A DNA stretch of 64,000 bases, from assembly GCA_963827275.1 (NCBI GenBank), contig CAWHAA010000006.1, positions 92,409-156,408 of the forward strand. The letters run 5' to 3'. Under the pieces are notes generated by a model, which saw only the letters and a program-made list of their open reading frames with translations, made no database searches and was not told where the DNA came from. Both the position numbers and the translations under genes were made by a program. The DNA comes from an uncultured Spirochaetota bacterium (lineage in GTDB: Bacteria; Spirochaetota; UBA4802; UBA5550). Of this stretch, positions 3,155 through 55,942 are shown one piece after another. How positions within the stretch are numbered: position 1 is the first letter of the stretch; the number at the start of each line of letters is the position of its first letter.

Positions 3155-4021
3155 CTATGACCCGAAAAATTCCGATAAAAGGTCCGTGATTTCCACCGGA
3201 CGTTCCTGCGGGATAAGGTGTCCCGCGGTTTGTATCAGGCGGTGGGAGCCGTTCGGGAGAAGGGACGCGACCTTCGGAAGGTCGATATAGGAGCGGTTTT
3301 CGCTCGCCTCGCCTTCGACGATCATCACCGGGCACGTGATGCTCGCAAGAACAGGCCACGGGTCGAACTGGAGGCCGCCCATGAACAACGCGGCCTCGCG
3401 CCGTGGATGGCATGCCAGCACCAGGCCGCCCCCGTCGCCGGAAATCATGCCGTATTTCACGTAGAGGTCCATCATCCCCGCGTCCCATTTCTCGAACATC
3501 TTTTTTGACGAGAGATAGCTCCTGGCGTCCGCCTCGCTGTCCCAGCCGTTGCGGCGCTTTATCGACCTCGAAGCCAGCGGGTGTTGTTCCACGGCGAGTC
3601 CGGTCCGGTAGATCGCCTCGGGGAGAAAGATCGGCTCGATCAGCACCATCTTCTCCGCGGCAAGGCCTTCCGTGGCGCTGGCGATCGCCGTGACCGTCGC
3701 GCCCATGCTGTGACCGGCCATGTAGGGCCTCTCGAGGCCGAGCCCGCGGCACAGGGCGGCCAGGTCTGAAGCGAGGAGCTTCCAGCTCAGGCCGCCCTCC
3801 TCGGGCTCTGCGGACCGATGATCGCAGAAGTAGGGGGCGATGATGCGGAAGCGCGGCCAGAGGGCCTGCGCGATCGGGTGCCAGAGCCAGGGGAGGAACC
3901 CCGTGGCGTGAAGGAGCACGAGGGCCGGTCCTTCCGACGGATAATGGAGGTACTGTATCTCGATGCCGCCGATGTCCTGGCGCAGTATTTCAGGCTCAAT
4001 GCGGACCGACATGACGCTCAA
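3155..4021 (-). CDS. alpha/beta-fold hydrolase
   Basis: 288 aa. Nucleophile elbow GHSMGA, an HGF-like oxyanion motif LLHATGF and a C-terminal His region. 4-nt overlap (ATGA) with the next gene. Confidence 0.7.
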   Translation of the reverse strand: MSVMSVRIEPEILRQDIGGIEIQYLHYPSEGPALVLLHATGFLPWLWHPIAQALWPRFRIIAPYFCDHRSAEPEEGGLSWKLLASDLAALCRGLGLERPYMAGHSMGATVTAIASATEGLAAEKMVLIEPIFLPEAIYRTGLAVEQHPLASRSIKRRNGWDSEADARSYLSSKKMFEKWDAGMMDLYVKYGMISGDGGGLVLACHPRREAALFMGGLQFDPWPVLASITCPVMIVEGEASENRSYIDLPKVASLLPNGSHRLIQTAGHLIPQERPVEITDLLSEFFGS

Positions 4022-4404
4022 ACCTTTCTGGCGTCGCCCGACAGGGGACGGATGCCGATGATCTTGAAGTAGACGAGGAACCGGTCTTTCCCTCCCTCGT
4101 CATCCGAGTCGGCCCGCTTTTTTCTCCGCAGCTCTTCTATGAGCGGGCTGTTCCTCTCTTCGCCGCATTTTTCTATATAGAGGCGCGTCCCGTGGAAGCC
4201 GTCGTCTTCCTTGAAGAGGTAGACCGCCTTCGGGTTTGACTGGAGGTTCTTGTGGCTCCGCTTGTCCGCCATGATGAACGCGATGGTCTCAAAATCGATG
4301 CAGTGGGGCCGTGAATAGAGAGCGGCGTCGACATTGCCGTCGGAATCGGCGGTTGAGAGGATGCCAAAACCGCGCGCGGTCTCAAAATATTCTTTCATTT
4401 CCAT
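4018..4404 (-). CDS. pyridoxamine 5'-phosphate oxidase-like FMN-binding split-barrel protein
   Basis: 128 aa. The pattern GFGILSTADSDGNVDAALYSRP...AVYLFKEDDGFHGTRLY resembles the PNPOx-like split-barrel fold. Family assignment is by motif recall only. Confidence 0.5.
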   Translation of the reverse strand: MEMKEYFETARGFGILSTADSDGNVDAALYSRPHCIDFETIAFIMADKRSHKNLQSNPKAVYLFKEDDGFHGTRLYIEKCGEERNSPLIEELRRKKRADSDDEGGKDRFLVYFKIIGIRPLSGDARKV

Positions 4405-5786: not shown

Positions 5787-6671
5787 ATGGTCGGCATTAA
5801 CCGGATCTGGGATGAAAGTGAAACCGGGGTGCGCATCCTTGCCAAACTCGAAGGGGCGAACCCGGGCGGCTCGGTAAAAGACCGGCCGGCGTATTACATG
5901 ATCAAGAAGGCCATAGAGTCGGGAGAGCTCACCAGGGACAAGGTGATACTGGAGCCGACGTCCGGCAACACGGGAATCGGCATGGCGATGATTGCATCGG
6001 CCATGGGCTACAGGATAAAGCTGACCATGCCCTCGTGCGTGAGCGAAGAGCGCCGCTCGATTCTTATCGCCATGGGGGCGGAGCTTGAGCTCACCCCGGG
6101 CTGCGACAAGACTGACGGCGCCATCACGCGGGCGCACCATATAGTGGACCACTTCCACGAAAAGTACTACATGCCCAACCAGTTCGGGAACCCGGCCAAC
6201 TGGATGGCCCATTATGAGACCACCGCGCCTGAAATAGTGCGGGACACGAAGGGGGAGGTGGACTTCTTCGTCGCCGGCATGGGCACCACCGGGACGCTGA
6301 TGGGCTGTTCCCGCTACTTCAGGGAGCACAATCCGAGGACGAAGGCCGTGGGCATTGAGCCGGTGCTGAACCACCGGATACAGGGATTGAAGAACATGAA
6401 CGAGTCAATCGTGCCCGCCATCTATGACCCGGCATTGCTTGACCGCAAAATCGTATGCACGGACGATGATGCGTTTGACACGACACGCAACCTGGCCCTC
6501 ATGGAGGGGCTCTTCTGCGGGATGTCGAGCGGCGCCGCAATGTGGGGCGCCATGGCCGTGGCGAGGGACCTGCCGCGCGGCGCCACCGTGGTCGTCCTTT
6601 TCCCGGACCGCGGCGACCGGTATCTGTCGACCGAGGTCTTCAGGTCCGTGTGCGCCATCTGCCCGCCCTGA
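5787..6671 (+). CDS. cysK: cysteine synthase (O-acetylserine sulfhydrylase), PLP-dependent. The true start probably lies upstream; see the finding on a 5' frame anomaly.
   Basis: 294 aa from the listed ATG. PLP-lysine motif NPGGSVKDR, glycine loop SGNTGIGMA and the TGGT-type loop GMGTTGT. The conserved N-terminal SVLDAIGNTP is encoded in-frame immediately upstream of the listed ATG. Confidence 0.85.
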   Translation: MVGINRIWDESETGVRILAKLEGANPGGSVKDRPAYYMIKKAIESGELTRDKVILEPTSGNTGIGMAMIASAMGYRIKLTMPSCVSEERRSILIAMGAELELTPGCDKTDGAITRAHHIVDHFHEKYYMPNQFGNPANWMAHYETTAPEIVRDTKGEVDFFVAGMGTTGTLMGCSRYFREHNPRTKAVGIEPVLNHRIQGLKNMNESIVPAIYDPALLDRKIVCTDDDAFDTTRNLALMEGLFCGMSSGAAMWGAMAVARDLPRGATVVVLFPDRGDRYLSTEVFRSVCAICPP

Positions 6672-6736
6672 TGAGGAATTGAACCGTTCGCATCGGCGTT
6701 GTGCGTCACATCATACGACAGATACAGGAGGCGCAT

Positions 6737-7693
6737 ATGAAATGCGGCATCAACAGCAACGAAGGCGACCGCCTGTCGGAAGAAGACATCAACGCCATAG
6801 TGCGCGAGCTCTGCGCGCCGGAGTCCTACCGCGCGGTGTACCACCGCACCTACCATGACTTCCCCATGCCGTCCGTGGATGCGCTCAGGGAGACGGTGGA
6901 CCTTGTCAAGTCCGTCCTCTTCCCCGGCTATTTCATCAATTCAGACGTCAGGCCGGAGACGATGAAATACCATATCGGATCAACGCTTGAACGGATTTAT
7001 CTTCACCTCGCGGAGCAGATCAAGCGGGGGTACTGCTTTTCGTGCGCGGACGCGGGTGATACTGACCATGAATGCGAAGACTGCGAGCGCCGTTCAAAGG
7101 AAGTCGCTTCGAAGTTCCTCCAGTCGCTCACCCGGCTCAGGCGATTGCTCACCCTGGATGCGCAGGCTGCGTACAGCGGCGACCCGGCGGCAAAGGGGGT
7201 CGGAGAGACCATCTTCTGCTATCCAAGCATCACGGCGCTCGCCAACCACCGCATCGCCCATGAGCTCTACTGCCTGGAGGTGCCGCTCATCCCCCGGATC
7301 ATATCGGAGATGGCCCATTCTGAGACCGGCATCGATATCCATCCCGGGGCGAAGATCGGCGAGTCCTTCTTCATTGACCACGGCACCGGCACGGTCATCG
7401 GAGAGACCGCCGTCATCGGCAGCAATGTAAGGATCTACCAGGGGGTGACCCTGGGAGCGAAGAGCTTTCCCCTTGACCCGTCGGGGAACCCGATCAAGGG
7501 GGTGCCGCGGCATCCCATCGTCGAGGACGACGTCATCATCTATTCCGGCGCGACCATCCTCGGCCGCGTGACGATCGGGAAGGGCGCGGAGGTGGGGGGC
7601 AATGTATGGCTTACCCGCGACGTGCCGGCAGGCGCCCGCATAGTGCAGGGGAGGCCGGAGGAGAGCCTTTTCAGGGACGGGCTGGGAATCTGA
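6737..7693 (+). CDS. cysE: serine O-acetyltransferase (left-handed beta-helix hexapeptide acyltransferase) with extended N-terminal domain
   Basis: Hexapeptide repeats GAKIGESFFIDHGTGTVIGETAVIGSNVRIYQGVTLG, typical of CysE. AGGAGG lies 6 nt upstream of the ATG at 6737, which is in-frame with the listed 6701 start. The gene is immediately downstream of cysK. Confidence 0.8.
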   Translation: MKCGINSNEGDRLSEEDINAIVRELCAPESYRAVYHRTYHDFPMPSVDALRETVDLVKSVLFPGYFINSDVRPETMKYHIGSTLERIYLHLAEQIKRGYCFSCADAGDTDHECEDCERRSKEVASKFLQSLTRLRRLLTLDAQAAYSGDPAAKGVGETIFCYPSITALANHRIAHELYCLEVPLIPRIISEMAHSETGIDIHPGAKIGESFFIDHGTGTVIGETAVIGSNVRIYQGVTLGAKSFPLDPSGNPIKGVPRHPIVEDDVIIYSGATILGRVTIGKGAEVGGNVWLTRDVPAGARIVQGRPEESLFRDGLGI

Positions 7694-7694
7694 C

Positions 7695-9044
7695 TTACTT
7701 TGCGCGGAGCATCTTCTGCGCGGCGGCGTTTACCGGGTCCCATACCGGGGAGAAGGGGGGCGCGTAGCCGAGGTCAAGATACGCGACGTTTTCCACTTTC
7801 ATCTTTGCCGCTACTGCCGCTGCGACCGTGTTGATGCGCAGCGCGGCGCCGTCAGTGCCGGCGATCTCGCCGCCGATAAGCTCCCGCGAGTGCGAGTTGA
7901 TGGTAAGGGACACGCTGATCCTGCCTGACGCGGGGTAGTATCCCGCCTTCGACCGCCACAGTACCGAGGACGATTCGGAAGGGATGCCGGCGCGCCACGC
8001 GTCAGCCTCGTTCAGCCCTGTTTTCCCCACCTCGAGGTCGAACACCTTCACCATCTGCGAGCCTACGATCCCGGGAAAGGCCTCGTCTTCCACCCCGGCC
8101 GCCTGGAGCCCCGCGACGCGTCCCTGCTTGTTCGCCGTGGTGCCCAGCGGCATGTAGGCGTTTTCACCGGTCACGAGGTGCTTCACCGTTGCGCAGTCGC
8201 CTGCGGCGTAGACATCCGGCCGGCTGGTGCGCGATTTCTCATCGACGATGATCGCGCCCCGGTCGTTCATCTGTATGCCGGCCCCCTTGAGGAACGCGGT
8301 GTTAGGCGCGATACCAGTGGAGACGATGACGAGGTTGGCCTCGTAGCGCTCCCCGCTCGCGCTAACGGCGAGGCCCGCCGCCGAATGCGTTATCCCTGAT
8401 ATGTCGGCGCCGGTCACCACGGCGACATCATTGACGCGGAGCGTCTCGGATATGATGCTCCGGATCACCGGGGAGAGGGGCATGGCCACAGACTCGAATT
8501 TCTCAAGTATGACCGTTTCAATTGAGCGCTTCCTGAATGCCTCGGCCATTTCGAGACCGATGAAGCCGCCGCCGATGATGATGCCTCTCCGGGGGGAGCG
8601 TTCGTCGATGTATTTTTTTATCGCGATCCCGTCTGACAGGGCCCGCAGGAAAAATATATTCGGTGAATCGATACCGTCGATGGGGGGGGCTACCGGGCGG
8701 GCGCCGGTCGCGATGACAAGCTTCCGGTACGCGAGGGTCTCGGTTCCTGCCGCGGAGGCTACCGAGACAGTCCGGGCGTCGCAATCGACGGCGGTCGCTT
8801 CTGTATTCAGGCGTATCTCTATATTACGGTCGTTAATATATTCGTCGATATCGATCGCGATAAGGTTTTCCGGCGTTTTGACATCATCGCCGATATAGTA
8901 GGGCATACCGCAGGCGGCGTATGAAACGTGCGCGCTTTTTTCGAGCACGGCGATTGACAGGGCTTCGGAGGTCCTGCGCGCCTGTGATGCCGCGCTCATC
9001 CCCGCAGCATCACCGCCGATGACGAGAATATCATATTTCTTCAT
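7695..9044 (-). CDS. FAD-dependent pyridine nucleotide-disulfide oxidoreductase (NADH oxidase / CoA-disulfide reductase family, no rhodanese domain)
   Basis: 449 aa. ILVIGGDAAGMSAA FAD fold, redox Cys motif SYAACGMPYY, second fold IIGGGFIGLEMAE. It is a paralog of the 1296..2978 protein. Confidence 0.85.
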   Translation of the reverse strand: MKKYDILVIGGDAAGMSAASQARRTSEALSIAVLEKSAHVSYAACGMPYYIGDDVKTPENLIAIDIDEYINDRNIEIRLNTEATAVDCDARTVSVASAAGTETLAYRKLVIATGARPVAPPIDGIDSPNIFFLRALSDGIAIKKYIDERSPRRGIIIGGGFIGLEMAEAFRKRSIETVILEKFESVAMPLSPVIRSIISETLRVNDVAVVTGADISGITHSAAGLAVSASGERYEANLVIVSTGIAPNTAFLKGAGIQMNDRGAIIVDEKSRTSRPDVYAAGDCATVKHLVTGENAYMPLGTTANKQGRVAGLQAAGVEDEAFPGIVGSQMVKVFDLEVGKTGLNEADAWRAGIPSESSSVLWRSKAGYYPASGRISVSLTINSHSRELIGGEIAGTDGAALRINTVAAAVAAKMKVENVAYLDLGYAPPFSPVWDPVNAAAQKMLRAK

Positions 9045-9166
9045 AGTGGGCCTCCGGCAATGAACACGTTGGTTGTCATGGATCGCATAATCGTGTCAAA
9101 AGTCGCAAAAAACGATGAATAAGTCAATAAAAATTAAAGAAAAATCTAAAATACTTAATGCCTTGC

Positions 9167-9195
9167 TTGACGGAGTACCTATTGTTAAGTATATT
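9167..9195 (+). promoter_or_regulatory. candidate sigma70 promoter of the HesB-like selenoprotein gene (TTGACG, 17-nt spacer, TATATT)
   Basis: Hexamers and spacing read directly from the sequence. 30 nt upstream of the ATG at 9225. The spacer contains the ATTGTTAAG half-site discussed under the findings. Confidence 0.35.
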
Positions 9196-9224
9196 CTAAA
9201 TAAATAATATACCGTCAGGAGGAG

Positions 9225-9530
9225 ATGGTGAAAATAGAAATTACGAAAACAGCCCAGGACAAGCTGGGGAAAGTCTTTGCCGAGTCAAAATTGAAACTCC
9301 CGGCCCTCAGGGTTACGTTTGCTGGATTTGGTTGAGGAGGGCCCCGTCTGGGACTGGCTCTGGATGAGCTGGAAGAGACCACAGATACCATCGTTGAAAC
9401 CGGCGGGTTCAAGGTGCTCGTAGACGAGAAGGTAAAGCACCATCTCGAGAGCATCCCGGAAACCACCGTGGATTATATCGAGTCGCGGTATGGTGCGGGC
9501 TTTGTCATACAGGGAGGTTCTACCTGTTAA
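9225..9530 (+). CDS. HesB/IscA-like protein with an in-frame TGA (candidate selenocysteine) at 9333..9335. This CDS does not appear in the ORF track as a plus-strand ORF because of that TGA.
   Basis: Reading ATG 9225 in frame gives MVKIEITKTAQDKLGKVFAESKLKLPALRVTFAGFG-TGA-GGPRLGLALDELEETTDTIVETGGFKVLVDEKVKHHLESIPETTVDYIESRYGAGFVIQGGSTC-TAA. Homology to IscA ([23 protein letters not shown]...GVKVVVD...LDF) continues across the TGA. The TGA aligns with the conserved cluster-ligand Cys. There is no start codon or RBS for an independent downstream ORF. AGGAGG precedes the ATG, and a candidate sigma70 promoter lies at 9167..9195. Confidence 0.55.
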
Positions 9531-9622
9531 GGCCCGCAATTCTTCAATGATAACGCATAAAAATATAAAAAAGGGGCTGTCAATCGACAGCCCCTTTTGA
9601 TTTTCACAACGCGGTCGCTGCA

Positions 9623-10198
9623 TTAAAAATTATCATCCAGAAGCTCAAAGTACGGCTGCGCATGCAGGCAGGCCGGACAGGCGTCCGGTGCGCTTTCGCC
9701 GTCATGGACATACCCGCAGTTCCTGCATTTCCACTTCGTCTTCTCTTTTTTCTTGAAAACGGTGCCGTCCTTGATGTTTTTCAGCAGCGCAAGATAACGC
9801 TGCTCATGGTGCTTCTCGACCTCTGCAATCCTCCGCCAGCAGATGGCGATGTCCTTGAACCCCTCCTGCTCGGCGATGTCCGCGAAGGCCGGATAGAGCT
9901 TGGTATGCTCCTCGTTTTCACCCATGGCCGCCGCCTTGAGGTTGTCTGCCGTGGAGCCGATGACCCCTGCGGGATAGGCGGCCGTTATCTCCACGTCCCC
10001 GCCCTCGAGGAACTTGAAGAAGCGTTTCGCGTGCTCCTTCTCATTGTCAGCCGTCTCGAGGAATATCGCCGCTATCTGCTCGTACCCGTCCTTTTTCGCC
10101 TGCGAAGCGAAATAGGTATATCGGGTCCGCGCCTGTGATTCACCGGCGAACGAGGCCAGCAGGTTTTTTTCAGTCTTGGTGCCTTTGATGCTCTTCAT
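9623..10198 (-). CDS. rbr: rubrerythrin (diiron ferritin-like domain plus C-terminal rubredoxin-like CxxC..CxxC domain)
   Basis: 191 aa. ExxH diiron motifs ([16 protein letters not shown]) and the C-terminal [22 protein letters not shown]. Confidence 0.9.
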
Positions 10199-10230
10199 TA
10201 AAATCTCCTTGTAATGATATTCTTGTTATA

Positions 10231-10752
10231 CTATACGGCAAGCCCGGTATAGAGGGCCATGTTCAGCGCGCGCTGGGCGAGCTCACGGTCCTTCATAAGC
10301 ATGCCGTTGCCGTCGTCTTTTATAAGCTTGAGCTCGTCCAGGATCTCCAGCGCCGATGCCTCTTCCTCGACCTGCTCTGCCACGAACCACTGGAGCATCT
10401 GGTTGGATGCGTGGTCCTTCTCGGCGATGGACAGATCGACCAGGCCGTTTATCAGGCCCGTGACCTTCTGCTCGTGCCTGTAAACCTCTTCGAATACATG
10501 TTCCGGCGACTTCCAGTCGGTCGGCGGCCCGTCGATGGGTTTCAGCATCACTTTGCCGCCCCTGTCGAACAGGTACTGGTAGAATTTCCTCGAGTGGGCG
10601 AATTCCTCGGCGGCCTGCACCTCCATCCAGTGCGCGAAGCCCTTGAGCCCCTTGTTCTGGAAGTAGGACATCATCGACAGGTACAGGTAGCCGGAATACT
10701 GTTCGGCGTTGATCTGGCTGTTTATTGCCTCTTCGACTTTCTTGTTTATCAT
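10231..10752 (-). CDS. ftn: non-haem bacterial ferritin
   Basis: 173 aa. Ferroxidase-centre residues in EQYSGYLYLSMMSYF...EEFAHSRKF...HEQ, with length and pattern typical of ferritin. Confidence 0.85.
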   Translation of the reverse strand: MINKKVEEAINSQINAEQYSGYLYLSMMSYFQNKGLKGFAHWMEVQAAEEFAHSRKFYQYLFDRGGKVMLKPIDGPPTDWKSPEHVFEEVYRHEQKVTGLINGLVDLSIAEKDHASNQMLQWFVAEQVEEEASALEILDELKLIKDDGNGMLMKDRELAQRALNMALYTGLAV

Positions 10753-10769
10753 GCGTCACTCTCCCGTGC

Positions 10770-11147
10770 TCACTTTTTCCATAATCCGTGGATGTTGCAG
10801 TATTCCCGTACCGTGGCCTTTTCATCGACGCAGCAGAACTCGGCTTCCGGCGCCTGTCCGGGCTTCAGGAACTTCCGGTTTGACGTCCCGTCGGCGGCGA
10901 TCACCTGGATCCACTCGATGTAGTGCTTCTCTTCCATGGGGTGGGCTACAGACCCGATTTTAGCCAGGATACCGTTGCCAGACTTGCTTACATCCGGCAC
11001 GTGCTTCTCCTTGGCTGCGTCAACGGTGTTTTCTGTTATAAGGGTCATGTCCTGGCCGCAGCAGACCAGCGTGCCGGCGCCCTCATGCAGCACCTCGACG
11101 ATGTTCCCGCATACCTGGCATTTGTACACTTGCAGTCTTGTTGTCAT
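10770..11147 (-). CDS. dfx: desulfoferrodoxin (2Fe superoxide reductase)
   Basis: 125 aa. N-terminal desulforedoxin Cys4 (CQVCGN...CCGQ) and the C-terminal neelaredoxin His/Cys centre ([12 protein letters not shown]...FCCVDE...CNIHG). RBS GGAGGAATC. Confidence 0.9.
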
Positions 11148-11208
11148 GTTGATTCCTCCATTGATTGTGTTTATTGCGGGGCTGTCCCGGAGGGCAGGCC
11201 CGCTGCAT

Positions 11209-12207
11209 CTACAGCTTCACTCTCCCCCTGAAGATGCGATAGGAATATATGGTATATCCGACCACGACCGGCATCCCGATAAGGGCAATGATGAGCATGA
11301 CGGTCAGGGTCAGCTGGCTTGACGATGAATTGTATATTGTTATACCCAGTTCCGTCCCCTGGGTTGCGCGGACCAGGGCGGGAAACTGGAGCGATCCGGC
11401 AATGCCCCAGAGCGAGGCAAAAAACAGGGATGACGCGGCAAAGGTCCTTCCGTCGCTATCGCGCCCGATCAGCGCCCTGTACGCGATGAGTGAGACAATC
11501 GCTACCGCTGCGCAGGCCCAGGCAATGGCGTTTTCCATGCTGCCCGGCAGGTAGACGGCCGAGAGGATGAGTGTGACCGGGAAGATCACGGCGGCGAAAA
11601 GCCATGCCTTTTTGGCGACGCTCTTTGCCCTCTCCTTCAGCGCGTCCCCGGTCTTGAGCGCCGCGTAGGCGCACCCCTGGAGAAGGATCGCCGACAGGCC
11701 GAGAAGGCCGATGGCGACCGGGAAGGGGCGCAGCAGGGTGAAGAAGCTGCCGGTGAACTCCATACCTTCGTCCAGCGGAATGCCGAGGATAACATTGCCC
11801 AGGGCCACGCCGAAGAGGAGCGAGGGGAGGGCGCTGCCGGCGGTGAAGGTCCATTTCCAGAGCCCGCGGCGTTTTTCGTCGAGGGACCAGAATTCAAGCG
11901 ATACCGCCCGCAGTATGAGCGCGAAGAGAACGAGCATCAGGGCGAGGTAAAACCCGCTGAAGACCGTGGCGTAGGCGTGGGGAAAGGCCGCGAAGAGGGC
12001 GCCGCCCCCCGTCAGGAGCCAGACCTCGTTGCCGTCCCATACCGGGCCGATCGCGGTGAACAGTGACGCCAGATCCTTCCTGTCGCGGGCCAGGACGGGG
12101 AGGAGAGTCCCGATACCGAGGTCAAAGCCGTCCAGGAGGGAATAGCCGATGAAAAGTACGCCGATGAGAAAAAACCAGGTGATCTGTAGCATCTGTAATG
12201 TTTCCAT
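11209..12207 (-). CDS. cydB: cytochrome bd ubiquinol oxidase subunit II
   Basis: Translation from [33 protein letters not shown] matches the CydB N-terminus. The listed 426-aa ORF is an upstream read-through into cydA. The ATG at 12207 follows a GGGGGA RBS and overlaps the cydA stop. Confidence 0.85.
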
Positions 12208-12209
12208 GC

Positions 12210-13541
12210 TCATTCCCCCACATATCCGATGGTGACGTTCCCGGGCCCCTTGCCCACAATTTTCGCCAGGAGCTTTAAAAATACGATGAAGAGCAGGAGA
12301 TAGATGATGCTGAACATGATGATCGACAATAGTATCTGCCAGGCCGGGACCGACACGGACGCGGCATCCGAGGTCCTGAGGACGCCGTACACGGCCCATG
12401 GCTGCCTGCCGATCTCCGCCGCCATCCATCCCAGTTCGTTTGAAATGAAGGGGAGCGGAACAGCAACAATCAGGGCCCACAGATACCACCGCGACCCGTA
12501 CAGTCGCCCGGTGATCAGCAACATTGCGCCGATGGCCGCGATAAGCGCGAAAAGGGCGCCAAGCCCGATCATGCCATGGTAGGTGAGGTAGACCGGGATG
12601 ATAGGCGGCTGGTCTTCTTCCTTGAATTCATTGAGGCCGATGACCTTTGAATTAGGGTCGAAGTCAATCAGCAGGCTGAGCAGTTTCGGCACCGCGATCT
12701 CAAGGTGGGTCTTTTTCGCGGCAGGGTCGGGAAGGCCGACAAGGGACATCGGCGCGCCCTCCATGGTCTCCCAGAGCGCTTCAAAGGCCGCCATCTTGGC
12801 GGGCTGGGTCTTCGCGACCTGTACCGCATGGATGTGGCCGGAGCCGAATTGCAGCAGCGATACGGCGATGAATATGCTGAGGGAGATCGAGAGCAGCAGC
12901 CGGGCGGCGGGAAGTTCGCGGTTCTTTAAAATATACCAGGCCCCGATCCCGGCGGTAAAGAGCGTGCCGGTGATCCAGCCCCCGATGACGGTATGAAGGT
13001 AGCGCACGAGGGTGGACGGATTGAACGTGGCGGCGTATACGTCCTTCAGCACGGCCCTCCCGCCCTCAATGGCGAATCCGGCCGGTGTCTGCATCCACGA
13101 GTTGGCGATGATGATCCAGAACCCTGACAGGTGCGACGCAAAAAAAACGAGGAACGCCGAGAGGAGGTATACCTTCCCCGAGACGCGCTCCCTTCCGAAG
13201 AGGAGGATGCCGAGGAAGACCGATTCCATGAAAAAGGCCAGGATCCCCTCCGCGGCAAGCGGCGCTCCGAAGATATCGCCCACCATCCGCGAGTAATTTG
13301 ACCAGTTCGTCCCGAATGAAAATTCCAGCACGATGCCGGTCGCGACCCCCATCACGAACACGAGGCCGAGGATTTTAATCATGAACGTCGATACTTTTTT
13401 TACGAGCTCGTCCCCGTTCCTCGCATGCATGATCAGCAGGATGAGCACGACCAGGGTAAGTCCGAGGGTGAGGGGCGGGAAAATGAAATGGAATCCCGCT
13501 GTCAGACCGAATTGAATCCTTGAAAGAAGTACGGCATCCAT
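12210..13541 (-). CDS. cydA: cytochrome bd ubiquinol oxidase subunit I (short Q-loop type)
   Basis: 443 aa. N-terminal QFGLTAGFHFIFPPLTLGL and haem-ligand region HxxxxG, a multi-TM profile, and translational coupling to cydB. Confidence 0.9.
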   Translation of the reverse strand: MDAVLLSRIQFGLTAGFHFIFPPLTLGLTLVVLILLIMHARNGDELVKKVSTFMIKILGLVFVMGVATGIVLEFSFGTNWSNYSRMVGDIFGAPLAAEGILAFFMESVFLGILLFGRERVSGKVYLLSAFLVFFASHLSGFWIIIANSWMQTPAGFAIEGGRAVLKDVYAATFNPSTLVRYLHTVIGGWITGTLFTAGIGAWYILKNRELPAARLLLSISLSIFIAVSLLQFGSGHIHAVQVAKTQPAKMAAFEALWETMEGAPMSLVGLPDPAAKKTHLEIAVPKLLSLLIDFDPNSKVIGLNEFKEEDQPPIIPVYLTYHGMIGLGALFALIAAIGAMLLITGRLYGSRWYLWALIVAVPLPFISNELGWMAAEIGRQPWAVYGVLRTSDAASVSVPAWQILLSIIMFSIIYLLLFIVFLKLLAKIVGKGPGNVTIGYVGE

Positions 13542-13592
13542 ACTAACGACCTCCCGTGCTGATGATGATGACGGTATCTGCCGTCATGTTCC

Positions 13593-13757
13593 TCAGTCTT
13601 CGTAGGGCTCGAACTGGTCCTTGGCAACGCCGCACTGGGGACAGACCCAGTCAGCCGGAAGTTTTTCGAACGGCGTGCCCGGCTTGATGCCCGAATCGGG
13701 ATCGCCGACTTCAGGATCGTATACGTAGCCGCATACCGAACATACATATTTTTTCAT
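13593..13757 (-). CDS. rubredoxin
   Basis: [15 protein letters not shown]...[13 protein letters not shown] has two CxxCG knuckles. GGAGGA RBS lies 7 nt upstream of the ATG at 13757. The listed ORF start at 13796 is an in-frame extension without an RBS. Confidence 0.9.
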
Positions 13758-13796
13758 GTCTGATTCCTCCACTATCTGGTTTGTATAATCTAACAA

Positions 13797-13811
13797 TTGT
13801 AATAGTTACAA
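13797..13811 (-). promoter_or_regulatory. PerR/Fur-box-like 7-1-7 palindrome TTGTAAT-A-GTTACAA between perR and the rubredoxin gene
   Basis: The arms TTGTAAT / GTTACAA are reverse complements at 6 of 7 positions, and the 6-bp core TTGTAA/TTACAA is perfect. It lies about 40 nt upstream of the rubredoxin ATG, overlapping a TATAAT-like hexamer (13784..13789). The architecture matches the B. subtilis Per box TTATAATnATTATAA. Confidence 0.45.
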
Positions 13812-13906
13812 ATTAATATACGGTTGATTATTTTGCAATAAGAAAAATATTTTTTATGATGCTGTGCTGAAAAACCGACGCACGCCGGTCAGTGATGGCG
13901 CGCGGT

Positions 13907-14326
13907 CTAATGCTGGCATTTTTTACAGATGCCTTTGTAATAGACCTGTTTCTCCGTGACAAGGTGCCCTTCTATTTTTTTTCCGGGACCGGTTTTTTTC
14001 TCAATCACTATATGCTCGGGATCGATGTCATACAGGATGCCGCATACGGTGCACTTGAAGTGGCCATGGAAAGATATCTCGGCGTCGTACCGGACCTCGT
14101 TGTCTTCAATGGTAATGTTCGAGACAAGGCCCTTTTCTCCGAATGTCTTCAGGGTGTTGTAGATCGTCGTTTTCGAGAGCGTGGGGATCTGCTTGATAAT
14201 AGCGTTGTAAATATCGTCCGCGGTCGGGTGGGTCTTGTTGCCCCACAGGTATTCATAGATCTTCAGCCGGTGGTATGAAGGGCTGATGCCGTTCTTGATA
14301 AGCATCTCTTTGAGGTTGTTGTCCAT
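13907..14326 (-). CDS. perR: Fur-family metalloregulator, PerR-like (peroxide-stress repressor). The subclass call is inferred from context.
   Basis: DNA-binding helix TADDIYNAIIKQIPTLSKTTIYNTLKTFGEKGLV, regulatory HxH site (ISFHGHF) and two CxxC pairs (CTVCG, CKKC). It is embedded among ROS-defence genes. A PerR-box-like palindrome lies 40 nt downstream, in front of the rubredoxin gene. Confidence 0.75.
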   Translation of the reverse strand: MDNNLKEMLIKNGISPSYHRLKIYEYLWGNKTHPTADDIYNAIIKQIPTLSKTTIYNTLKTFGEKGLVSNITIEDNEVRYDAEISFHGHFKCTVCGILYDIDPEHIVIEKKTGPGKKIEGHLVTEKQVYYKGICKKCQH

Positions 14327-14380
14327 GGTTATACGTCCATTTCGAGATGTGCGCATGCCGTTACGGCAGATCTGGCACGG

Positions 14381-15545
14381 TCACTGAATCTCCTTTTCCA
14401 GCTTTGCGGTTATGCTGTTTAATAATTCGTCATCCGGAATGTATTTGGCGCGTATGCTTTCGAGCATGGTAAAGCCGCAGCCCGCGAGAATCTCTTCAAC
14501 CTGCTTTATGCTCTGGCCGCCCCAGCCGTATGAGCCGAACGCGAGCCCGGTCCTTGTTTTTGGCGCAAGGCCGCGGAGATAGGTAAGGAAGGCCGAAACG
14601 GTCGGCAGCATGTTGTTGTTCAGCGTGGGCGACCCGACGCAGATATACCTGGCGTCGATCACCTCGGTCATGATGTCGGAAATGTGGTTCGTCTGGAGGC
14701 TCATCATGTGTGCGCGGCAGCCGCGGTTTTCGAACGCCGCGGCGACATGCAAACGCGATCTTTTTCGTCGAGTTCCACATGGTGTCGTAGATGATAAGGG
14801 CCTTGTCCGCGGTCTCGTTGGCCGACCACGCGGTGTAGGCCTTGATGATCGACGGGATGTTCTTCCTCCATATGATGCCGTGGCTGGGCGCTATGACGTC
14901 TATGGCCAGGGGGGCGGCCGCGGCCAGGGCTTTCTTGACCTGGTCGGAATAGGGGAGGACGATATTGGCGTAATACTTGCGCGCCTCCTCCATGATTATA
15001 TCGAGCGAGAACTCGTCGTCGAAGCGCTCGGGGGTGGCCAGGTGCTGGCCGAATGCGTCATTGGAGAAAAGGATGCGCTCTTCAGGGAGATAGGTAATCA
15101 TGTTATCGGGCCAGTGGACCATTGGCGTGAGCACGAAGGTGAAGTTGTATTTGCCGGTGCTGATGGTTTCGGCATTGTTCACCGCTTTCAGGTTCAGGCC
15201 GGATTTGTAATGCTCGTTGAGGCCCTTCATCCCGTTCGGCGAGGTGTAGATTGTCGCCCGGGGGGCGATCTTCGCTATCATCGGGAGGGACCCCGAATGG
15301 TCCATCTCGACATGGTTGGATATGATGCAGTCGATTTTCGACGGGTCAACCACGGAGCTGATGCGCTCAAGCATCTCGTCGCAGAGATAATGTTTCACGG
15401 TATCGATGAGGGTTATCTTTTCATCGATCACCAGGTAGGCATTATAGGTGGAACCGCGCTGGGTAAGGTAGCCGTGGAAATTTCTCAGGTCCCAGTCGAT
15501 GCCGCCGACCCAGTAGATGTTGTCTTTTATTTTTATCGCTTTCAT
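14381..15545 (-). pseudogene. flavodiiron protein (rubredoxin:oxygen oxidoreductase / FprA type) interrupted by a +1 frameshift between the metallo-beta-lactamase-like and flavodoxin-like domains
   Basis: ORF 14496..15545 has an intact diiron domain (HxExDH: HVEMDHSG) up to ...YDTMWNSTKKIA, then becomes junk. ORF 14381..14752 (TTG-initiated in the track) reads HVAAAFENRGC...VGSPTLNNNMLP...GSYGWGG, which is the flavodoxin domain. The two frames join only if one nucleotide is removed near ..gcg ttt g|cat.. (about 14750..14756). Confidence 0.75.
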
Positions 15546-15858
15546 GTCTGCGCTCCATCGTGATTGCTGTAATCTGTCGGATAAACATAAACGGCAACCG
15601 GAGCTTCACCTTCCATATAACGCACGCCCCTGTCCATTTATCCGATACTGTATTATATTTTGTCAATTAAACTTTTATATTTGTTTTAAAATTTAAACCG
15701 GAGAGGGACAAAATAATTGCCAATTATACTTTGGTGTTGACAGCATGAGCCAAAATGTAACAATACTGTAACAGCGTCGACAATGCGTTACGGCTGCCCA
15801 TGGAGCGCGCGTCCACGTCGATAAGGTAAAAAAACAATACCAACCGAGGTTCCGGCAT

Positions 15859-17178
15859 ATGAAAACCGCAAAAATAATGTGCACGATTATAGCAGCGGCC
15901 TCTCTCATGCTCTGCGTATCATGCAGGAAAACGCAGCACTGGGAATTGTCCCGCTTCGTCTCGCCGGAAACCTGCGGCGGGTGTCACGACGCGATCTATG
16001 AACAGTGGAAGGGGTCGATGCACAGCCTGTCGCACGTTGACCCGATCTACCGCGAGGTGGCGCTCCACGACCTGAAGGGGCTTACCGACCCGGATGAGAT
16101 AAAGGAAGCGGAGCACTGCGTGCCCTGCCACACTCCGGTCGGCTTTGTGTCCGGCATGCCGCTGAAGACATCGGACCATACAAAGACGATACCTGAAATC
16201 GCCGCAAAGGGCATCCAGTGCGACTACTGCCATTCCGCGACGCGGGTACGCGAGGTATTCAATGCACAGATCGACATAGAGCCGGGGAACGGCGAGAGCG
16301 ACCCGGGGACAAAGCGCGGCCCGAGGAAAGACGCGGAACCTGATTTTCACAAGGCGGCATATTCTGAAATGCATACGCGTTCCGAATTCTGCGGTTCCTG
16401 TCATGACGTGCGGCATGTCGTTTTCGGGACGAAGCTTGAGACGCCGTACGAGGAATGGAAGAGAGGCCCCTACGCGGCGCAGGGCATACAGTGCCAGGGG
16501 TGCCATATGTACCAGCGGCCGGGCGTCCCTGCGACCGGCTCGACGGAACGGCCCGGCAACCCGGGGGCGTCGGCTTCGGGCGCAAAGGAGCGCCCCCATG
16601 TCTTTACCCATTATTTCACGGGGGGGAATTCCCTGGTCCCGTCCATGTTCAAAAACAAGGACCAGTCGAAGCTCGCTGAAGAGCGGCTTAAAAACGCCGC
16701 CACGGTCTCTATTGATGCAGCGCTCGCTGACGGCGCCCTGCGCGTCAAGGTGACCAACAGCGGTGCGGGCCACAGCATCCCGACCGGACTGAGCCACGTG
16801 CGACAGATGTGGCTTGAGGTGACGGTCACCGGCGCGGGAGGGAGGATGATATACAAGAGCGGTGCCCTGGACCGGGAGGGCAAAATACCGACCGGCGCGG
16901 TTCTCTATAACCTGGTGCTCGGCGACGGCAGGGGCGTCCCGGTAATGAATGTCGCAAAGGCGCGGGAAATCATCAGGGACAGGAGGATCGATCCGATGAA
17001 GAGCGCGGTGGAGACATACCGGCTGACCGGGATAGAGGAAAAAACCGTAACCGCCGAAGCGAAATTATGGTACCGCATCGCGCCGCAGGAGGTGGTCGAT
17101 GCCGTGCTCGGGAAAGGTGCGCTGGCGATACCTGCCGTCCTCATGGCATCTGACCGCAAAACGGTGACGGTCCGGTAG
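15859..17178 (+). CDS. secreted/lipo multihaem cytochrome c (five CxxCH motifs)
   Basis: 439 aa. N-terminal signal peptide. CGGCH, CVPCH, CDYCH, CGSCH and CQGCH. Diverges from the flavodiiron gene. Confidence 0.8.
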   Translation: MKTAKIMCTIIAAASLMLCVSCRKTQHWELSRFVSPETCGGCHDAIYEQWKGSMHSLSHVDPIYREVALHDLKGLTDPDEIKEAEHCVPCHTPVGFVSGMPLKTSDHTKTIPEIAAKGIQCDYCHSATRVREVFNAQIDIEPGNGESDPGTKRGPRKDAEPDFHKAAYSEMHTRSEFCGSCHDVRHVVFGTKLETPYEEWKRGPYAAQGIQCQGCHMYQRPGVPATGSTERPGNPGASASGAKERPHVFTHYFTGGNSLVPSMFKNKDQSKLAEERLKNAATVSIDAALADGALRVKVTNSGAGHSIPTGLSHVRQMWLEVTVTGAGGRMIYKSGALDREGKIPTGAVLYNLVLGDGRGVPVMNVAKAREIIRDRRIDPMKSAVETYRLTGIEEKTVTAEAKLWYRIAPQEVVDAVLGKGALAIPAVLMASDRKTVTVR

Positions 17179-17199
17179 CGGACGTTTTTAGAAACGCCG

Positions 17200-17682
17200 C
17201 TATCGGCCCCGGGCATCTTTCAGGGCGTTCAGGACCTCCTCGGCGTGCCCGTTTACGCGCACCTTCTCCCAGATGCGCTGTATGACGCCCGCGGGGTCTA
17301 TGAGGAACGTCGAGCGAACAACGCCGTATGACTCCTTCCCGTATAATTTTTTTATCTGCCACACGCCGTAGCGTTTGATGACCGCACGCCCGGCATCGCT
17401 GAGAAGGGTGATCCCCGTGCCGAGCTTCGCCATGAACCTGCCGTGGCTGGCCGGAGAATCGGGGCTGATGCCGATGACCCTGGCTTTCAGCCTGCCGAAA
17501 TCCCCGGCGCGGGCGGTGAATTCCGCCGCCTCGGTCGTGCACCCCGGCGTGTTGTCGCGCGGATAGAAATAGAGCACCACCCATGAGCCGCGCAGCCCTT
17601 CCAGTGAAACTTCCTTCCCGGCTGAATCCGGCAGGGTAAAGTCGGGGGCTTTAACGCCTTCCTGCAATTTTTTCGTTGCCAT
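17200..17682 (-). CDS. bcp: peroxiredoxin, Bcp/PrxQ type (thiol peroxidase)
   Basis: From MATKKLQEGVKAPDFTLPD. The peroxidatic Cys sits in the TPGCT motif (YFYPRDNTPGCTTEA). Length about 160 aa. Confidence 0.85.
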   Translation of the reverse strand: MATKKLQEGVKAPDFTLPDSAGKEVSLEGLRGSWVVLYFYPRDNTPGCTTEAAEFTARAGDFGRLKARVIGISPDSPASHGRFMAKLGTGITLLSDAGRAVIKRYGVWQIKKLYGKESYGVVRSTFLIDPAGVIQRIWEKVRVNGHAEEVLNALKDARGR

Positions 17683-17753
17683 GCGTGCGCTCCTCCTTAG
17701 TGTGGCGATCAAAACCTGTCAGCGATGACAGCAGTATGGCGTGTAACCGGGCA

Positions 17754-18413
17754 ATGTCAACAACTCCTGAAAATAAATATGACGCGTCCCTGAGGCGTAT
17801 CCACCGGGAGATCGGGGGGCGGGTCGGCCTCCGGCTCAGTGAATTCAGGGAGATCTGGGAAACGGCGGATGACACGAAACTCTTCGTGGAGCTTGTATTC
17901 TGCCTCCTTACCCCGCAATCGGGGGCGCGGCGCTGCTGGCAGGCGGTCGAAAATCTGCTGCGCGGCGGCATTCTGTTCTACGGTGGGCCCGATGAAATAT
18001 GCCGCGAGCTGAACATCGTCCGCTTCAAGAACCACAAGACCTCCTACCTCCTGGAAGCGCGGGAGGCGTTGTACGGGCCGGGAAAATCCCTGCGGCGGAC
18101 GCTGTGCGCGTGCGGGGATGCCGCGGGGATGCGGGAGTGGATATTCCGGAACGTGAAGGGACTCGGGTACAAGGAGGCGAGCCATTTCCTCAGGAATATC
18201 GGGCTCGGCGAGGGACTCGCGATACTCGACCGGCACGTGCTGCGGATCATGCATGAGCGGGGGCTGATCGGCGGCATTCCGGCGTCCATATCGCCGCACC
18301 GGTATTGTGAAATGGAGCGCATACTGGGCGATTACGCCCGCAGGATCAGAGTGCCGATGGGGCACCTGGATTTTGTCATGTGGTACAGGGCGACAGGAGA
18401 TATTTTCAAGTGA
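17754..18413 (+). CDS. HhH-GPD superfamily N-glycosylase/DNA lyase, 8-oxoguanine DNA glycosylase (archaeal-type Ogg) -like
   Basis: Helix-hairpin-helix LRNIGLGEGLAILDRHV with a catalytic Asp after the Gly-rich turn. LFVELVFCLLTPQS is typical of Ogg2-like proteins. The start is placed at an internal ATG (MSTTPENKY) because the listed 17676 start would overlap the divergent bcp. Confidence 0.65.
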   Translation: MSTTPENKYDASLRRIHREIGGRVGLRLSEFREIWETADDTKLFVELVFCLLTPQSGARRCWQAVENLLRGGILFYGGPDEICRELNIVRFKNHKTSYLLEAREALYGPGKSLRRTLCACGDAAGMREWIFRNVKGLGYKEASHFLRNIGLGEGLAILDRHVLRIMHERGLIGGIPASISPHRYCEMERILGDYARRIRVPMGHLDFVMWYRATGDIFK

Positions 18414-18440
18414 CGTGGCGGTCTTCCGGCGCGACCGGCA

Positions 18441-18920
18441 TCACATCAGCCTCAGCTTTTCCGACAGGTCAGCCAGTGTAATGACGTGGGCCCGTTCCTC
18501 GGATATGATCCTGTCGAGCAGGGCGGACGACTCCGTGCCGGCCGGATACAGCCCTTTCATGCCGTAATAGAACAGTATGGAGTCCTTTTCCGCTATCAGG
18601 GCCAGCCGCACCGCGTCTATCGGAAGCCGTAGCGTTTCCATGACGTGTTCCGGGTCCTTGCCCGGCGTCCCGAATACCCGTGAGCCGCCGATGGCAGCGA
18701 GATAGGCATAGTATTCCTCGGTAAAGTTGCCCGGTGCGGCGTCATTGCCGTGGAACGACTGGAATAATTTTTTATGCGCCAGCTCTTCCTTCGCGAGGAA
18801 CTCGAAGGCGTCACGCATGGCGGGCTCCTTGAATTTTTCTGCGCAGCGGGCGTAGAACTCGTTCCCTGTCTCCTCGATGCCGACGGCGATATCGATGATC
18901 TCCTTCATGGTATACGACAT
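18441..18920 (-). CDS. rubrerythrin-like ferritin-fold diiron protein (no rubredoxin domain)
   Basis: 159 aa. Two E...ExxH half-sites (EETGNEF...EELAHKKLF and AEKDS...EERAHVITL). Confidence 0.6.
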   Translation of the reverse strand: MSYTMKEIIDIAVGIEETGNEFYARCAEKFKEPAMRDAFEFLAKEELAHKKLFQSFHGNDAAPGNFTEEYYAYLAAIGGSRVFGTPGKDPEHVMETLRLPIDAVRLALIAEKDSILFYYGMKGLYPAGTESSALLDRIISEERAHVITLADLSEKLRLM

Positions 18921-55417: not shown

Positions 55418-55942
55418 TTACTGTGTTGTTATGCTGTTGAATGTAATCGTTACGTCGTACGTGTTGCGGCCCTTGATCGTCTGGTTGATCCGGAGATAGC
55501 TGATTTTTGTCAGCAGGCCGGAATTTTCCATCTTGTATATGAAATTGAGGATGGAGTTTATATCAACCCCTTCGAACCGCACATCCGCAGACACTTTCTT
55601 GAACTTTCCCTGCGTTATCGTGGGCCGGTCCCTGGTGTAGGTCTTGTTCTTTATGATGTTGAGGCTCTGGGCGTTTTCCTCTATGATCGACGTGAGCCCC
55701 CGCGTGCTGCCGGTCTGCGCGTTGAACTGGGACATCTTGTCGCGGATTTCACGGTACTGTTCGTGGATCTTGTCGAGCTGGTTCAGCTTCGACATGTTCG
55801 ACTCGAATTCAGTATTGATGCTGTTCCTGAGGCTCAGGATGGGCGATATGACGAGGAAATAGAGCACCAGCACCCCCGCAACGGCGGCCAGTATCTGGAG
55901 GAGAAGTTTTTCACGCTTGTTGAGTTCTATCATGCCGGCCAC
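55418..55942 (-). CDS. gspM: type II secretion system protein M (PilO-like)
   Basis: 174 aa. N-terminal TM (LLLQILAAVAGVLVLYFLVISPI), a coiled-coil and a periplasmic ferredoxin-like domain. Follows gspL directly. Confidence 0.6.
   Translation of the reverse strand: MAGMIELNKREKLLLQILAAVAGVLVLYFLVISPILSLRNSINTEFESNMSKLNQLDKIHEQYREIRDKMSQFNAQTGSTRGLTSIIEENAQSLNIIKNKTYTRDRPTITQGKFKKVSADVRFEGVDINSILNFIYKMENSGLLTKISYLRINQTIKGRNTYDVTITFNSITTQ

Follow-up and report, generated by a model that had tools for sequence, protein, structure and literature searches.

A probable PerR-linked cluster of oxygen- and ROS-defence genes in an uncultured spirochaete-like bacterium

Introduction

A 64-kb stretch of DNA from an uncultured bacterium (GenBank assembly GCA_963827275.1, contig CAWHAA010000006.1, positions 92,409 to 156,408; hereafter the window) raises the question whether the dense group of genes for defence against oxygen (O2) and reactive oxygen species (ROS) at its positions 9225-18920 (9.7 kb) is an inherited system under the control of a peroxide-sensing regulator, or an island of recent or foreign origin. 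The group includes genes for rubrerythrin (rbr), ferritin (ftn), desulfoferrodoxin (dfx), cytochrome bd (cydAB), rubredoxin (rub), a PerR-type regulator (perR), a flavodiiron protein (FDP; fdp) and a pentahaem cytochrome c (cytc). Genes were identified by listing of open reading frames (ORFs) and by Pfam and NCBIfam profile searches, and their coordinates are collected in Table 1. Smaller groups of this kind have been described, including the PerR-linked rbr-perR-rbo-gltD operon of C. difficile (10.1101/2024.09.17.613384), and perR-rbr-rdl and Rbo/Rub/Roo of D. vulgaris as well as perR-rbr-roo of Geobacter (PMC545781).

The analysis presented here indicates that the locus is probably a chromosomally native, vertically inherited, PerR-linked O2/ROS-defence supercluster of an uncultured lineage, the nearest relatives of which are labelled Spirochaetota or Leptospirales. 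An apparently anaerobic, spirochaete-like lineage would concentrate almost all of its O2/ROS response in a single PerR-linked region, comprising cytoplasmic and membrane O2 reduction, superoxide and peroxide reduction, iron sequestration, and repair of oxidised bases. Moreover, the locus provides a testable operator, TTGTAAY-N-ATTACAA, and its conserved context could help to assign functions to the pentahaem c552 family and to a HesB-like selenoprotein.

Results and Discussion

Conservation of the cluster and its flanks in related genomes

In a scan of one genome per species, the top matches of CydA were metagenome-assembled genomes (MAGs) labelled Leptospirales (L001, 76%), Spirochaetota (L002, 64%), and Spirochaetes (L003, 63%), and no sulfate reducer was close to CydA. 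The flanking RNase R (72%) and PepA (70%) are likewise present in L001, in unchanged order, so the similarity extends beyond what a transferred oxidase would bring. The initial annotation had set the locus against sulfate reducers, a frame that does not fit nearest relatives of CydA, RNase R and PepA that are MAGs labelled Leptospirales, Spirochaetota or Spirochaetes; an origin from sulfate reducers was rejected on these labels and on the synteny of the flanks.

Four further loci (L083, L084, L085 and L090) were obtained from a metagenome scan with a Dfx alignment. L083 and L084 carry the whole block, with 17-19 collinear matches from pepA/ogg to cysK/epimerase at 57-91% protein identity. In L085 the block is reduced and lacks the cytochrome, ogg, the rbr-like gene and ferritin, and L090 has rub-cydAB-dfx. 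The gene order thus recurs in L001, L083 and L084, and in part in L002, L003, L085 and L090, which argues that the clustering is not due to chance; since block and flanks are collinear in relatives, the cluster appears to be ancestral to the clade and stably linked. A recent assembly of the island, left open in the initial annotation, is contradicted by this conservation, flanks included, and by a GC content that shows no anomaly relative to the flanks. Two independent assemblies, L081 (Logan assembly of SRR30024182, 17.9 kb) and L082 (from GCA_964430645.1, 11.7 kb), are fully collinear with the locus at approximately 99% nucleotide identity, and the contig is therefore not chimeric, the eventuality that had been named as fatal to the island.

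Composition was compared per gene between the 14 cluster genes and the 36 other genes of the window; GC was 0.567 for the cluster genes as against 0.582 for the others (p = 0.42), and GC at third codon positions (GC3) was 0.74 and 0.77, respectively (p = 0.086), neither difference being significant. The surrounding genes are those of a core chromosome (dnaG-rpoD, ispH, aroE, a Mur ligase, and a type II secretion system (T2SS) operon), and no integrase, transposase or other mobility gene was found among the window genes. A scan of the 64-kb window for tRNA genes found none, hence no tRNA at an island border, and the window as a whole gave no Rfam match at gathering thresholds. Neither composition, nor mobility genes or a tRNA border, nor absence from relatives marks the region as horizontally acquired. 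Some observations would suit a recently assembled or acquired island, or an assembly chimera: GC falls to 0.52-0.56 at about 9-16 kb as compared to 0.60-0.62 just outside, and beyond the spirochaete MAGs the next-nearest CydA relatives are MAGs and one genome labelled Aminicenantes, Eubacteriales, Desulforadius, and Clostridiales. This explanation is nevertheless very improbable and has largely been refuted already, by the per-gene GC and GC3 values, by the lack of integrase, transposase and tRNA in the window, by the agreement of two independent assemblies, and by the collinearity of block and flanks in relatives down to about 55-65% identity.

Putative transcription units

All 14 genes that the initial annotation had named in the region were confirmed by profile searches, at or near the same positions. 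The eight genes from fdp to rbr are all encoded on the minus strand, as had been noted, and only the spacing required slight correction: instead of gaps of 17 to 115 nt and one of 146 nt, the distances from rbr towards fdp are 32, 17 and 61 nt, a 4-nt overlap, 51 nt, 149 nt (between rub and perR), and 24-54 nt. The division into roo-perR and rub-cydAB-dfx-ftn-rbr that had been suggested is plausible in view of the short gaps, the presence of a promoter plus operator in the perR-rub spacer, and the strong terminator after rbr. Likely, the locus is transcribed as two PerR-repressed units, fdp-perR and rub-cydAB-dfx-ftn-rbr, the latter of which would start at the promoter in the 149-nt spacer and end at the terminator, with rubredoxin as the likely electron hub and first gene of the long operon. 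The divergent cytc, bcp, ogg, the rbr2-like gene (possibly with pepA), the selenoprotein gene hesB, and nox would form separate neighbouring units.

The terminator between the convergent genes rbr and hesB, which serves both, had a minimum free energy of -29 kcal/mol (z = -5.8), none of 200 shuffled sequences folded as well, and it was the only statistically strong one among the intergenic hairpins tested. The hairpins after perR and in the rub-cydA and cydB-dfx spacers (z from -0.9 to -1.5) were not used as operon boundaries.

The rub-cydA (13542-13592) and cydB-dfx (11148-11208) spacers each contain, on the minus strand, a GC-rich hairpin that has no T-tract and folds no better than shuffled sequences; they might serve as processing or stability elements and so give the proteins of the operon different ratios. 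At 9566-9568, in the T-run/loop flank of the rbr/hesB terminator, the window differs from L081 by a 3-nt indel and several single-nucleotide polymorphisms (SNPs), with the stem preserved.

The regulator and its candidate operator

Among solved structures, the regulator matched B. subtilis PerR best (2FE3, E = 3e-19), followed by 5NL9, 6DK4 and 4I7H. The structures 2FE3 and 4I7H were labelled PerR by their depositors, and 5NL9 and 6DK4 were deposited under Fur-family names; we take 5NL9, 6DK4 and 4I7H to be the PerRs of Leptospira, Campylobacter and Streptococcus, respectively. In the alignment to 2FE3, residues H43, D91, H97, H99 and D110 coincide with B. subtilis H37, D85, H91, H93 and D104, so that all five PerR metal ligands are present, including the equivalent of the PerR-diagnostic Asp104, and a Cys4 zinc site (CTVC at 102 and CKKC at 144) agrees with the Fur-family fold.

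A 7-1-7 palindrome, TTGTAACTATTACAA, is the candidate operator; it adjoins or overlaps the putative -10 element of the conserved rub promoter TTGCAA-N17-TAATTT, so that, judged from sequence, an operator of the palindromic type expected for PerR appears to be present at this promoter. Its core, TGTAAYNRTTACA, had a single intergenic match in 64 kb, against 0.14 expected; a second match to the core, at 55442, falls within coding sequence of the T2SS operon and was dismissed as a chance occurrence. Comparison with L001 (TTGCAA/TTGCCA, a spacing of 16-17 nt, TAATTT/TATTTT, and the box) revealed that promoter and box form a conserved module in an otherwise diverged spacer. Boxes with no more than two mismatches precede rub in L001, L084 and L085, and fdp in L001, L083 and L084; throughout L083-L085 and L090 (about 70 kb), all four boxes with at most two mismatches lie upstream of fdp or rub. 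Similar boxes directly follow the perR promoters of L003 and of L020, an unclassified MAG. The GTAAT-N-(A/G)TTAC core matches or resembles that of the PerR box predicted in D. vulgaris, AtCAGTAATtGTTACTGgT (PMC545781, Table 7).

A conserved -35 element, TTGACAAA, is found upstream of fdp (15546-15700, minus strand), followed at 16 nt by the -10 elements TACTAT, TAATGT and TATTGT in L001, L083 and L084, respectively, and by a poor CGGATA in the window and L081. At the position where relatives have a PerR-like box upstream of fdp, the window and L081 carry the perfect palindrome ATAATTG-C-CAATTAT. This palindrome, ATAATTGNCAATTAT, had no further copies in the window and can therefore not be tied to a regulon. 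The poor -10 and the replaced palindrome hint that the architecture of the fdp-perR promoter may have changed in this species. The perR-rub spacer of L003 (7741-7989), read by eye, appears to encode a small heavy-metal-associated-domain-like protein (…NISCAHCKAKIENELRQIEGITEVNV…) that is absent from the window.

Alternatively, the Fur-family protein could sense iron, as Fur does, or another metal, which would place the operon under the control of iron status. The Fur-family fold is in line with this, as are matches of the NCBIfam Irr and Fur models to a protein that stays below the PerR cut-offs, the ferritin and many iron proteins encoded by the operon, and a 7-1-7 box architecture that is common to Fur, Zur and PerR. 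Such a sensor is improbable, however, considering that the four best structure matches include the depositor-labelled PerRs 2FE3 and 4I7H, that the Asp104 equivalent is present together with the remainder of the H/D/H/H/D site, and that the neighbourhood in every relative consists of peroxide and oxygen defence genes.

Proposed mechanism of PerR-linked defence

Based on the established functions of the protein families, PerR-linked defence may proceed as follows. In reduced cells, metallated PerR would repress the rub promoter from the 7-1-7 box TTGTAAY-N-ATTACAA, which it would occupy at the putative -10 element; in relatives, it would also repress fdp-perR. Upon exposure to H2O2 or O2, oxidation of the metal-site histidines would release PerR from the DNA and the operon would be expressed. 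Electrons from NAD(P)H would reach rubredoxin through a flavoprotein reductase, for which the adjacent CoADR/Nox enzyme is a candidate only, and would pass from it to three enzymes: the flavodiiron protein, which turns O2 into H2O, desulfoferrodoxin, which converts superoxide to H2O2, and rubrerythrin, which reduces H2O2 to H2O. At the membrane, O2 would be removed by cytochrome bd with menaquinol, ferritin would limit Fenton chemistry by withdrawal of Fe2+, Bcp would reduce hydroperoxides, and Ogg would excise 8-oxoguanine. In the window sequence, the flavodiiron arm of this scheme would be interrupted by a 1-nt insertion.

Several points weigh against a native PerR-controlled cluster as set out here. 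The regulator reaches none of the NCBIfam PerR equivalog cut-offs (best NF052545, clostridial PerR, 103.9 against 180 bits), with NCBIfam Irr and Fur models also matching, and is consequently best described as a PerR-like protein of an uncurated branch. The region upstream of fdp in the window does not have the box of the relatives, with another palindrome in its place and a poorly matched -10, which makes autoregulation of fdp-perR uncertain here. As the hairpin after perR is not distinctive (z = -0.88), read-through from fdp-perR into rub is possible. Furthermore, no dedicated NADH:rubredoxin oxidoreductase was identified, and the lineage assignment relies on submitters' labels of related MAGs.

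Cytochrome bd as a respiratory or a defence enzyme

CydA and CydB display the features of a cytochrome bd quinol oxidase of the short Q-loop type, and alignment of CydA to its E. coli counterpart (6RKO) showed that the equivalents of H19, H186, M393, E99, E107 and E445 are all kept, haem ligands, conserved glutamates and all proton-channel residues included. It is conceivable, if rather unlikely, that rub-cydAB-dfx-ftn-rbr is mainly a microaerobic respiratory module of a microaerophilic or facultative host, in which the oxidase conserves energy from low O2 and the ROS enzymes deal with by-products, and not the equipment of a strict anaerobe for which bd is only a scavenger. CydA has every catalytic and haem-ligand residue of the proton-motive bd oxidases, cydAB is placed in the middle of the operon, and the window gives no sign of strict anaerobiosis. 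On the other hand, superoxide reductase (SOR), rubrerythrin, rubredoxin and FDP are the set of partners typical of anaerobes, rather than superoxide dismutase plus catalase (PMC545781; established knowledge), and control through a PerR-type box suggests a stress response more than respiratory regulation. The respiratory and the defence readings are not mutually exclusive.

Within the PerR-linked defence cluster, a more speculative and rather unlikely proposal is that cytochrome bd was recruited into the PerR regulon in this lineage. Transcribed after rubredoxin and together with SOR, ferritin and rubrerythrin, it would scavenge O2 in a peroxide-inducible manner, and the conserved, divergently encoded pentahaem c552-family lipoprotein would serve as a so far unrecognised periplasmic arm, e.g., as a peroxidase or electron conduit. 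If true, this would be the first physiological role for the pentahaem c552 family.

The frameshift in the flavodiiron gene

The initial annotation had reported the flavodiiron gene as frameshifted, and the frameshift is real in this sequence. Base-by-base comparison with L081 attributes it to one extra T at 14747 (GCA[T]GTC), by which the window gene lacks the continuous ORF of a class A flavodiiron protein. The L081 orthologue is intact, with 387 aa and ODP and Flavodoxin_1 domains, and L001, L002 and L083-L085 each encode fdp in a single frame. Programmed frameshifting was rejected, since every relative encodes the protein in one frame.

The insertion may be either a strain-specific loss or an assembly error. 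The chances appear evenly divided as to whether it is an error of sequencing or assembly and the gene is functional in the organism. An error would be consistent with the intact gene in an assembly of 99% identity and the single frame in all relatives; likewise, a look-up for other assemblies with the frameshift found no record of the truncated 349-aa product in the public gene index. Against an error, the extra T is outside a homopolymer, the assembly is not indel-prone in view of only two indel events relative to L081 in 17.9 kb, and a SNP close to 14747 points to genuine strain divergence at this site.

The SNP density between the window and L081 is uneven, amounting to 3.3% in nox and 2.9% in hesB (region 7695-9530), and 0-0.9% in most neighbours, with no SNPs in cytc, cysK and a 128-aa ORF. 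This distribution suggests a local recombination tract, or relaxed or diversifying selection.

Clustering around dfx and comparison with known systems

In a set of 80 diverse cydA loci, genes for SOR, Rbr, ferritin or FDP next to cydAB are confined to the three spirochaete MAGs and L020, the latter with the order perR-rbr-dfx-ftn-cydAB-fdp-rub. A complementary survey took the 24 metagenomic dfx loci that have 4 kb or more of sequence to either side, and families were counted within 6 kb. At least two other families of the set were present in 21 of the 24 loci, at least three in 17, and at least five in 8; the maximum was five other families outside the clade, compared to 8-9 within it. In addition, cydAB adjoins or is near dfx in the unrelated contigs L130, L142, L144 and L145, with CydA identities of 39-42%. 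To call the locus unusually complete goes too far: it is the largest case seen (8-9 other families within 6 kb), but dfx clusters of 3-5 families are the rule and cydAB occurs near dfx in unrelated lineages too. Consolidation around dfx is common, and the present locus is at the upper end of a known continuum, distinct in degree and not in kind. A literature search combining spirochaetes, rubrerythrin and cytochrome bd returned no papers.

The components are all familiar, as is the principle of PerR-linked clustering, and the locus is no new kind of system. As in the rbr-perR-rbo-gltD operon of C. difficile and the PerR regulon of C. acetobutylicum, a PerR-type repressor is encoded among rubrerythrin, desulfoferrodoxin and a rubredoxin-type carrier. 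The C. difficile operon reduces O2- and H2O2 all the way to water (10.1101/2024.09.17.613384), and by analogy the same may hold here. Unlike in C. difficile, perR follows fdp, the main operon additionally contains cydAB and ferritin, rubredoxin is free-standing instead of a domain, and the host is spirochaete-like and not a Firmicute.

With D. vulgaris and Geobacter, the cluster has in common the FDP/Roo, Dfx/Rbo, Rub, Rbr and PerR families and the co-location of PerR with its targets (PMC545781), and the GTAAT-N-RTTAC core is shared with the D. vulgaris box. In Desulfovibrio the modules are found at separate loci, whereas here they are contiguous and accompanied by ferritin, Bcp, Ogg, the pentahaem cytochrome, and cydAB. 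Desulfovibrio cydAB is presumably also located at a separate locus. The account in PMC545781 is silent on cydAB.

The regulator resembles the PerRs of B. subtilis (2FE3/3F8N) and Leptospira interrogans (5NL9) in its five regulatory ligands, Cys4 zinc site and 7-1-7 operator. It differs from them in scoring under the NCBIfam PerR equivalog cut-offs and in its operator, which reads TTGTAAT-N-ATTACAA and not TTATAAT-N-ATTATAA. Its putative targets are SOR, Rbr, FDP and cytochrome bd, as compared to catalase, AhpC and CCP for the B. subtilis and Leptospira regulators (PMC10294975).

The pentahaem cytochrome and the HesB-like selenoprotein

The cytochrome contains exactly five CXXCH motifs, in agreement with its initial designation as pentahaem, and has the characteristics of the c552/PHC family. 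It is homologous to 5ZE8 (chain annotated cytochrome c552, E = 2.3e-10), which we take to be the Thermochromatium tepidum protein, and has weak matches to the ExtKL and c554 profiles. The two proteins are alike in length (439 and 435 aa), both have five CXXCH motifs, and homology extends across three segments, placing the window protein with the PHC/ExtKL family; the similarity to 5ZE8 is just about E = 2e-10, and the window gene differs in being divergent from fdp and in an oxidative-stress context. Moreover, cytc is conserved next to fdp in L001, L002, L083 and L084. The function of the pentahaem c552/PHC family is unassigned (PMC11976967), and no description of an oxidative-stress gene context for this family was found in the literature. 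Of all features of the cluster, the conserved placement of cytc opposite fdp is understood least.

HesB-like proteins are a known selenoprotein family (PMC1794560). The in-frame TGA of the window gene (translation GFG*GGPR) occupies the conserved redox Cys/Sec position, where Sec denotes selenocysteine, and is kept at the same position in the 35%-identical L002 homologue, as expected of a HesB-like selenoprotein. Structure prediction places a hairpin some 12-20 nt past the UGA, and this potential selenocysteine insertion sequence (SECIS) folds no better than shuffled sequences (z = 0.39). Neither tRNA-Sec nor a sel gene was found in the 64-kb window.

In public gene calls, a 111-aa hypothetical ORF is annotated at 9285-9623 on the minus strand, with counterparts at 11067-11402 in L081 and 4284-4619 in L082. 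It runs antisense to the HesB-like gene, which was itself missed in these calls, presumably because of the in-frame TGA, and is probably spurious.

Gene inventory and neighbouring genes

Table 1. Coordinates of genes and regulatory elements in and around the defence cluster (positions in the window)
Feature	Position	Strand	Assignment and remarks
CoADR/Nox-family flavoprotein	1296-2978	-	C-terminal rhodanese domain; Pfam Pyr_redox_2, Pyr_redox_dim, Rhodanese
cysK	5787-6671	+	Pfam PALP; cysteine synthesis, flanks cluster
cysE	6701-7693	+	Pfam Hexapep; cysteine synthesis, flanks cluster
nox (CoADR/Nox/Npx-family flavoprotein)	7695-9044	-	Pfam Pyr_redox_2, Pyr_redox_dim; divergent from hesB
hesB (HesB/IscA-like selenoprotein)	9225-9530	+	In-frame TGA at 9333-9335
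Strong bidirectional intrinsic terminator	9569-9598		Common to convergent rbr and hesB; 13-bp stem, flanking T and A runs
rbr (rubrerythrin)	9623-10198	-	H2O2 reductase; NF045767 314 bits (cut-off 200); Pfam Rubrerythrin and RUBY_RBDX
ftn (non-haem ferritin)	10231-10752	-	Iron sequestration; Pfam Ferritin 1.2e-39; NCBIfam non-haem ferritin match under cut-off
dfx (desulfoferrodoxin)	10770-11147	-	2Fe superoxide reductase; TIGR00320 198.9 bits (cut-off 146.9)
cydB	11209-12213	-	Pfam Cyt_bd_oxida_II, 303 bits
cydA	12210-13541	-	Pfam Cyt_bd_oxida_I, 510 bits
rub (rubredoxin)	13593-13757	-	Pfam Rubredoxin 5.6e-26
Candidate PerR operator	13797-13811		7-1-7 palindrome TTGTAACTATTACAA; 149-nt perR-rub spacer, upstream of rub
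perR (PerR-type Fur-family regulator)	13907-14356	-	Pfam FUR 7.3e-22; likely start M11 at 14326
fdp (class A flavodiiron protein)	14381-15545	-	Rubredoxin:O2/NO oxidoreductase type; two frames; Pfam ODP/Lactamase_B on N-terminal part
Perfect 15-bp palindrome	15713-15727		ATAATTG-C-CAATTAT; between divergent fdp and cytc
cytc (pentahaem c-type cytochrome)	15859-17178	+	Exactly five CXXCH; N-terminal signal or lipoprotein-like sequence
bcp (Bcp/PrxQ thioredoxin-dependent peroxiredoxin)	17200-17712	-	Pfam AhpC-TSA 3.8e-38; likely start 17682; NCBIfam PrxQ/Bcp matches under cut-off
ogg (Ogg-type 8-oxoguanine DNA glycosylase/lyase)	17676-18413	+	Pfam Ogg-HhH 3.9e-51; NF002305 204.7 bits (cut-off 183); likely start 17736
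TM1526-type ferritin-like diiron-carboxylate (rubrerythrin-like) protein	18441-18920	-	Pfam Rubrerythrin partial 1.3e-7; PDB 1VJX E = 2.3e-9, full length

Domain composition and conserved residues agree with the assignments of the main enzymes. Rubrerythrin combines a diiron four-helix bundle with a C-terminal rubredoxin-like domain. Desulfoferrodoxin has an N-terminal Dx-like FeCys4 domain and a C-terminal His4Cys centre, as in 2Fe superoxide reductases, and C10, C13, C29, C30, H49, H69, H75, C117 and H120 are invariant in the Dfx alignment, columns that fit what we take to be the ligand set of centres I and II. The TM1526-type protein lacks a rubredoxin domain, and its gene is located 55 nt downstream of pepA.

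The two Nox/CoADR flavoproteins and cysK-cysE that had been placed upstream of the cluster were found by Pfam, and cysK-cysE is collinear in L083, L084 and L085. The top NCBIfam model of nox is CoA-disulfide reductase (410 bits, under the cut-off of 458), and its sequence reads one active-site Cys motif, SYAACGMPYY. The flavoprotein with the rhodanese domain is peripheral to the cluster and belongs to thiol/persulfide redox.

The 128-aa ORF (4018-4404, minus strand) is conserved, has no Pfam match and is identical between strains. Its homologues adjoin dfx in the unrelated contigs L146 and L149 (40-44% identity), and the ORF may represent a so far overlooked accessory gene of clusters for ROS defence. 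Elsewhere in the window, the gpsA ORF (43277-45580, plus strand, 767 aa) and the ispH/LytB ORF (52733-54454, minus strand, 573 aa) each extend some 300-400 aa beyond their Pfam domain coverage and may be fusions or carry unannotated extra domains.

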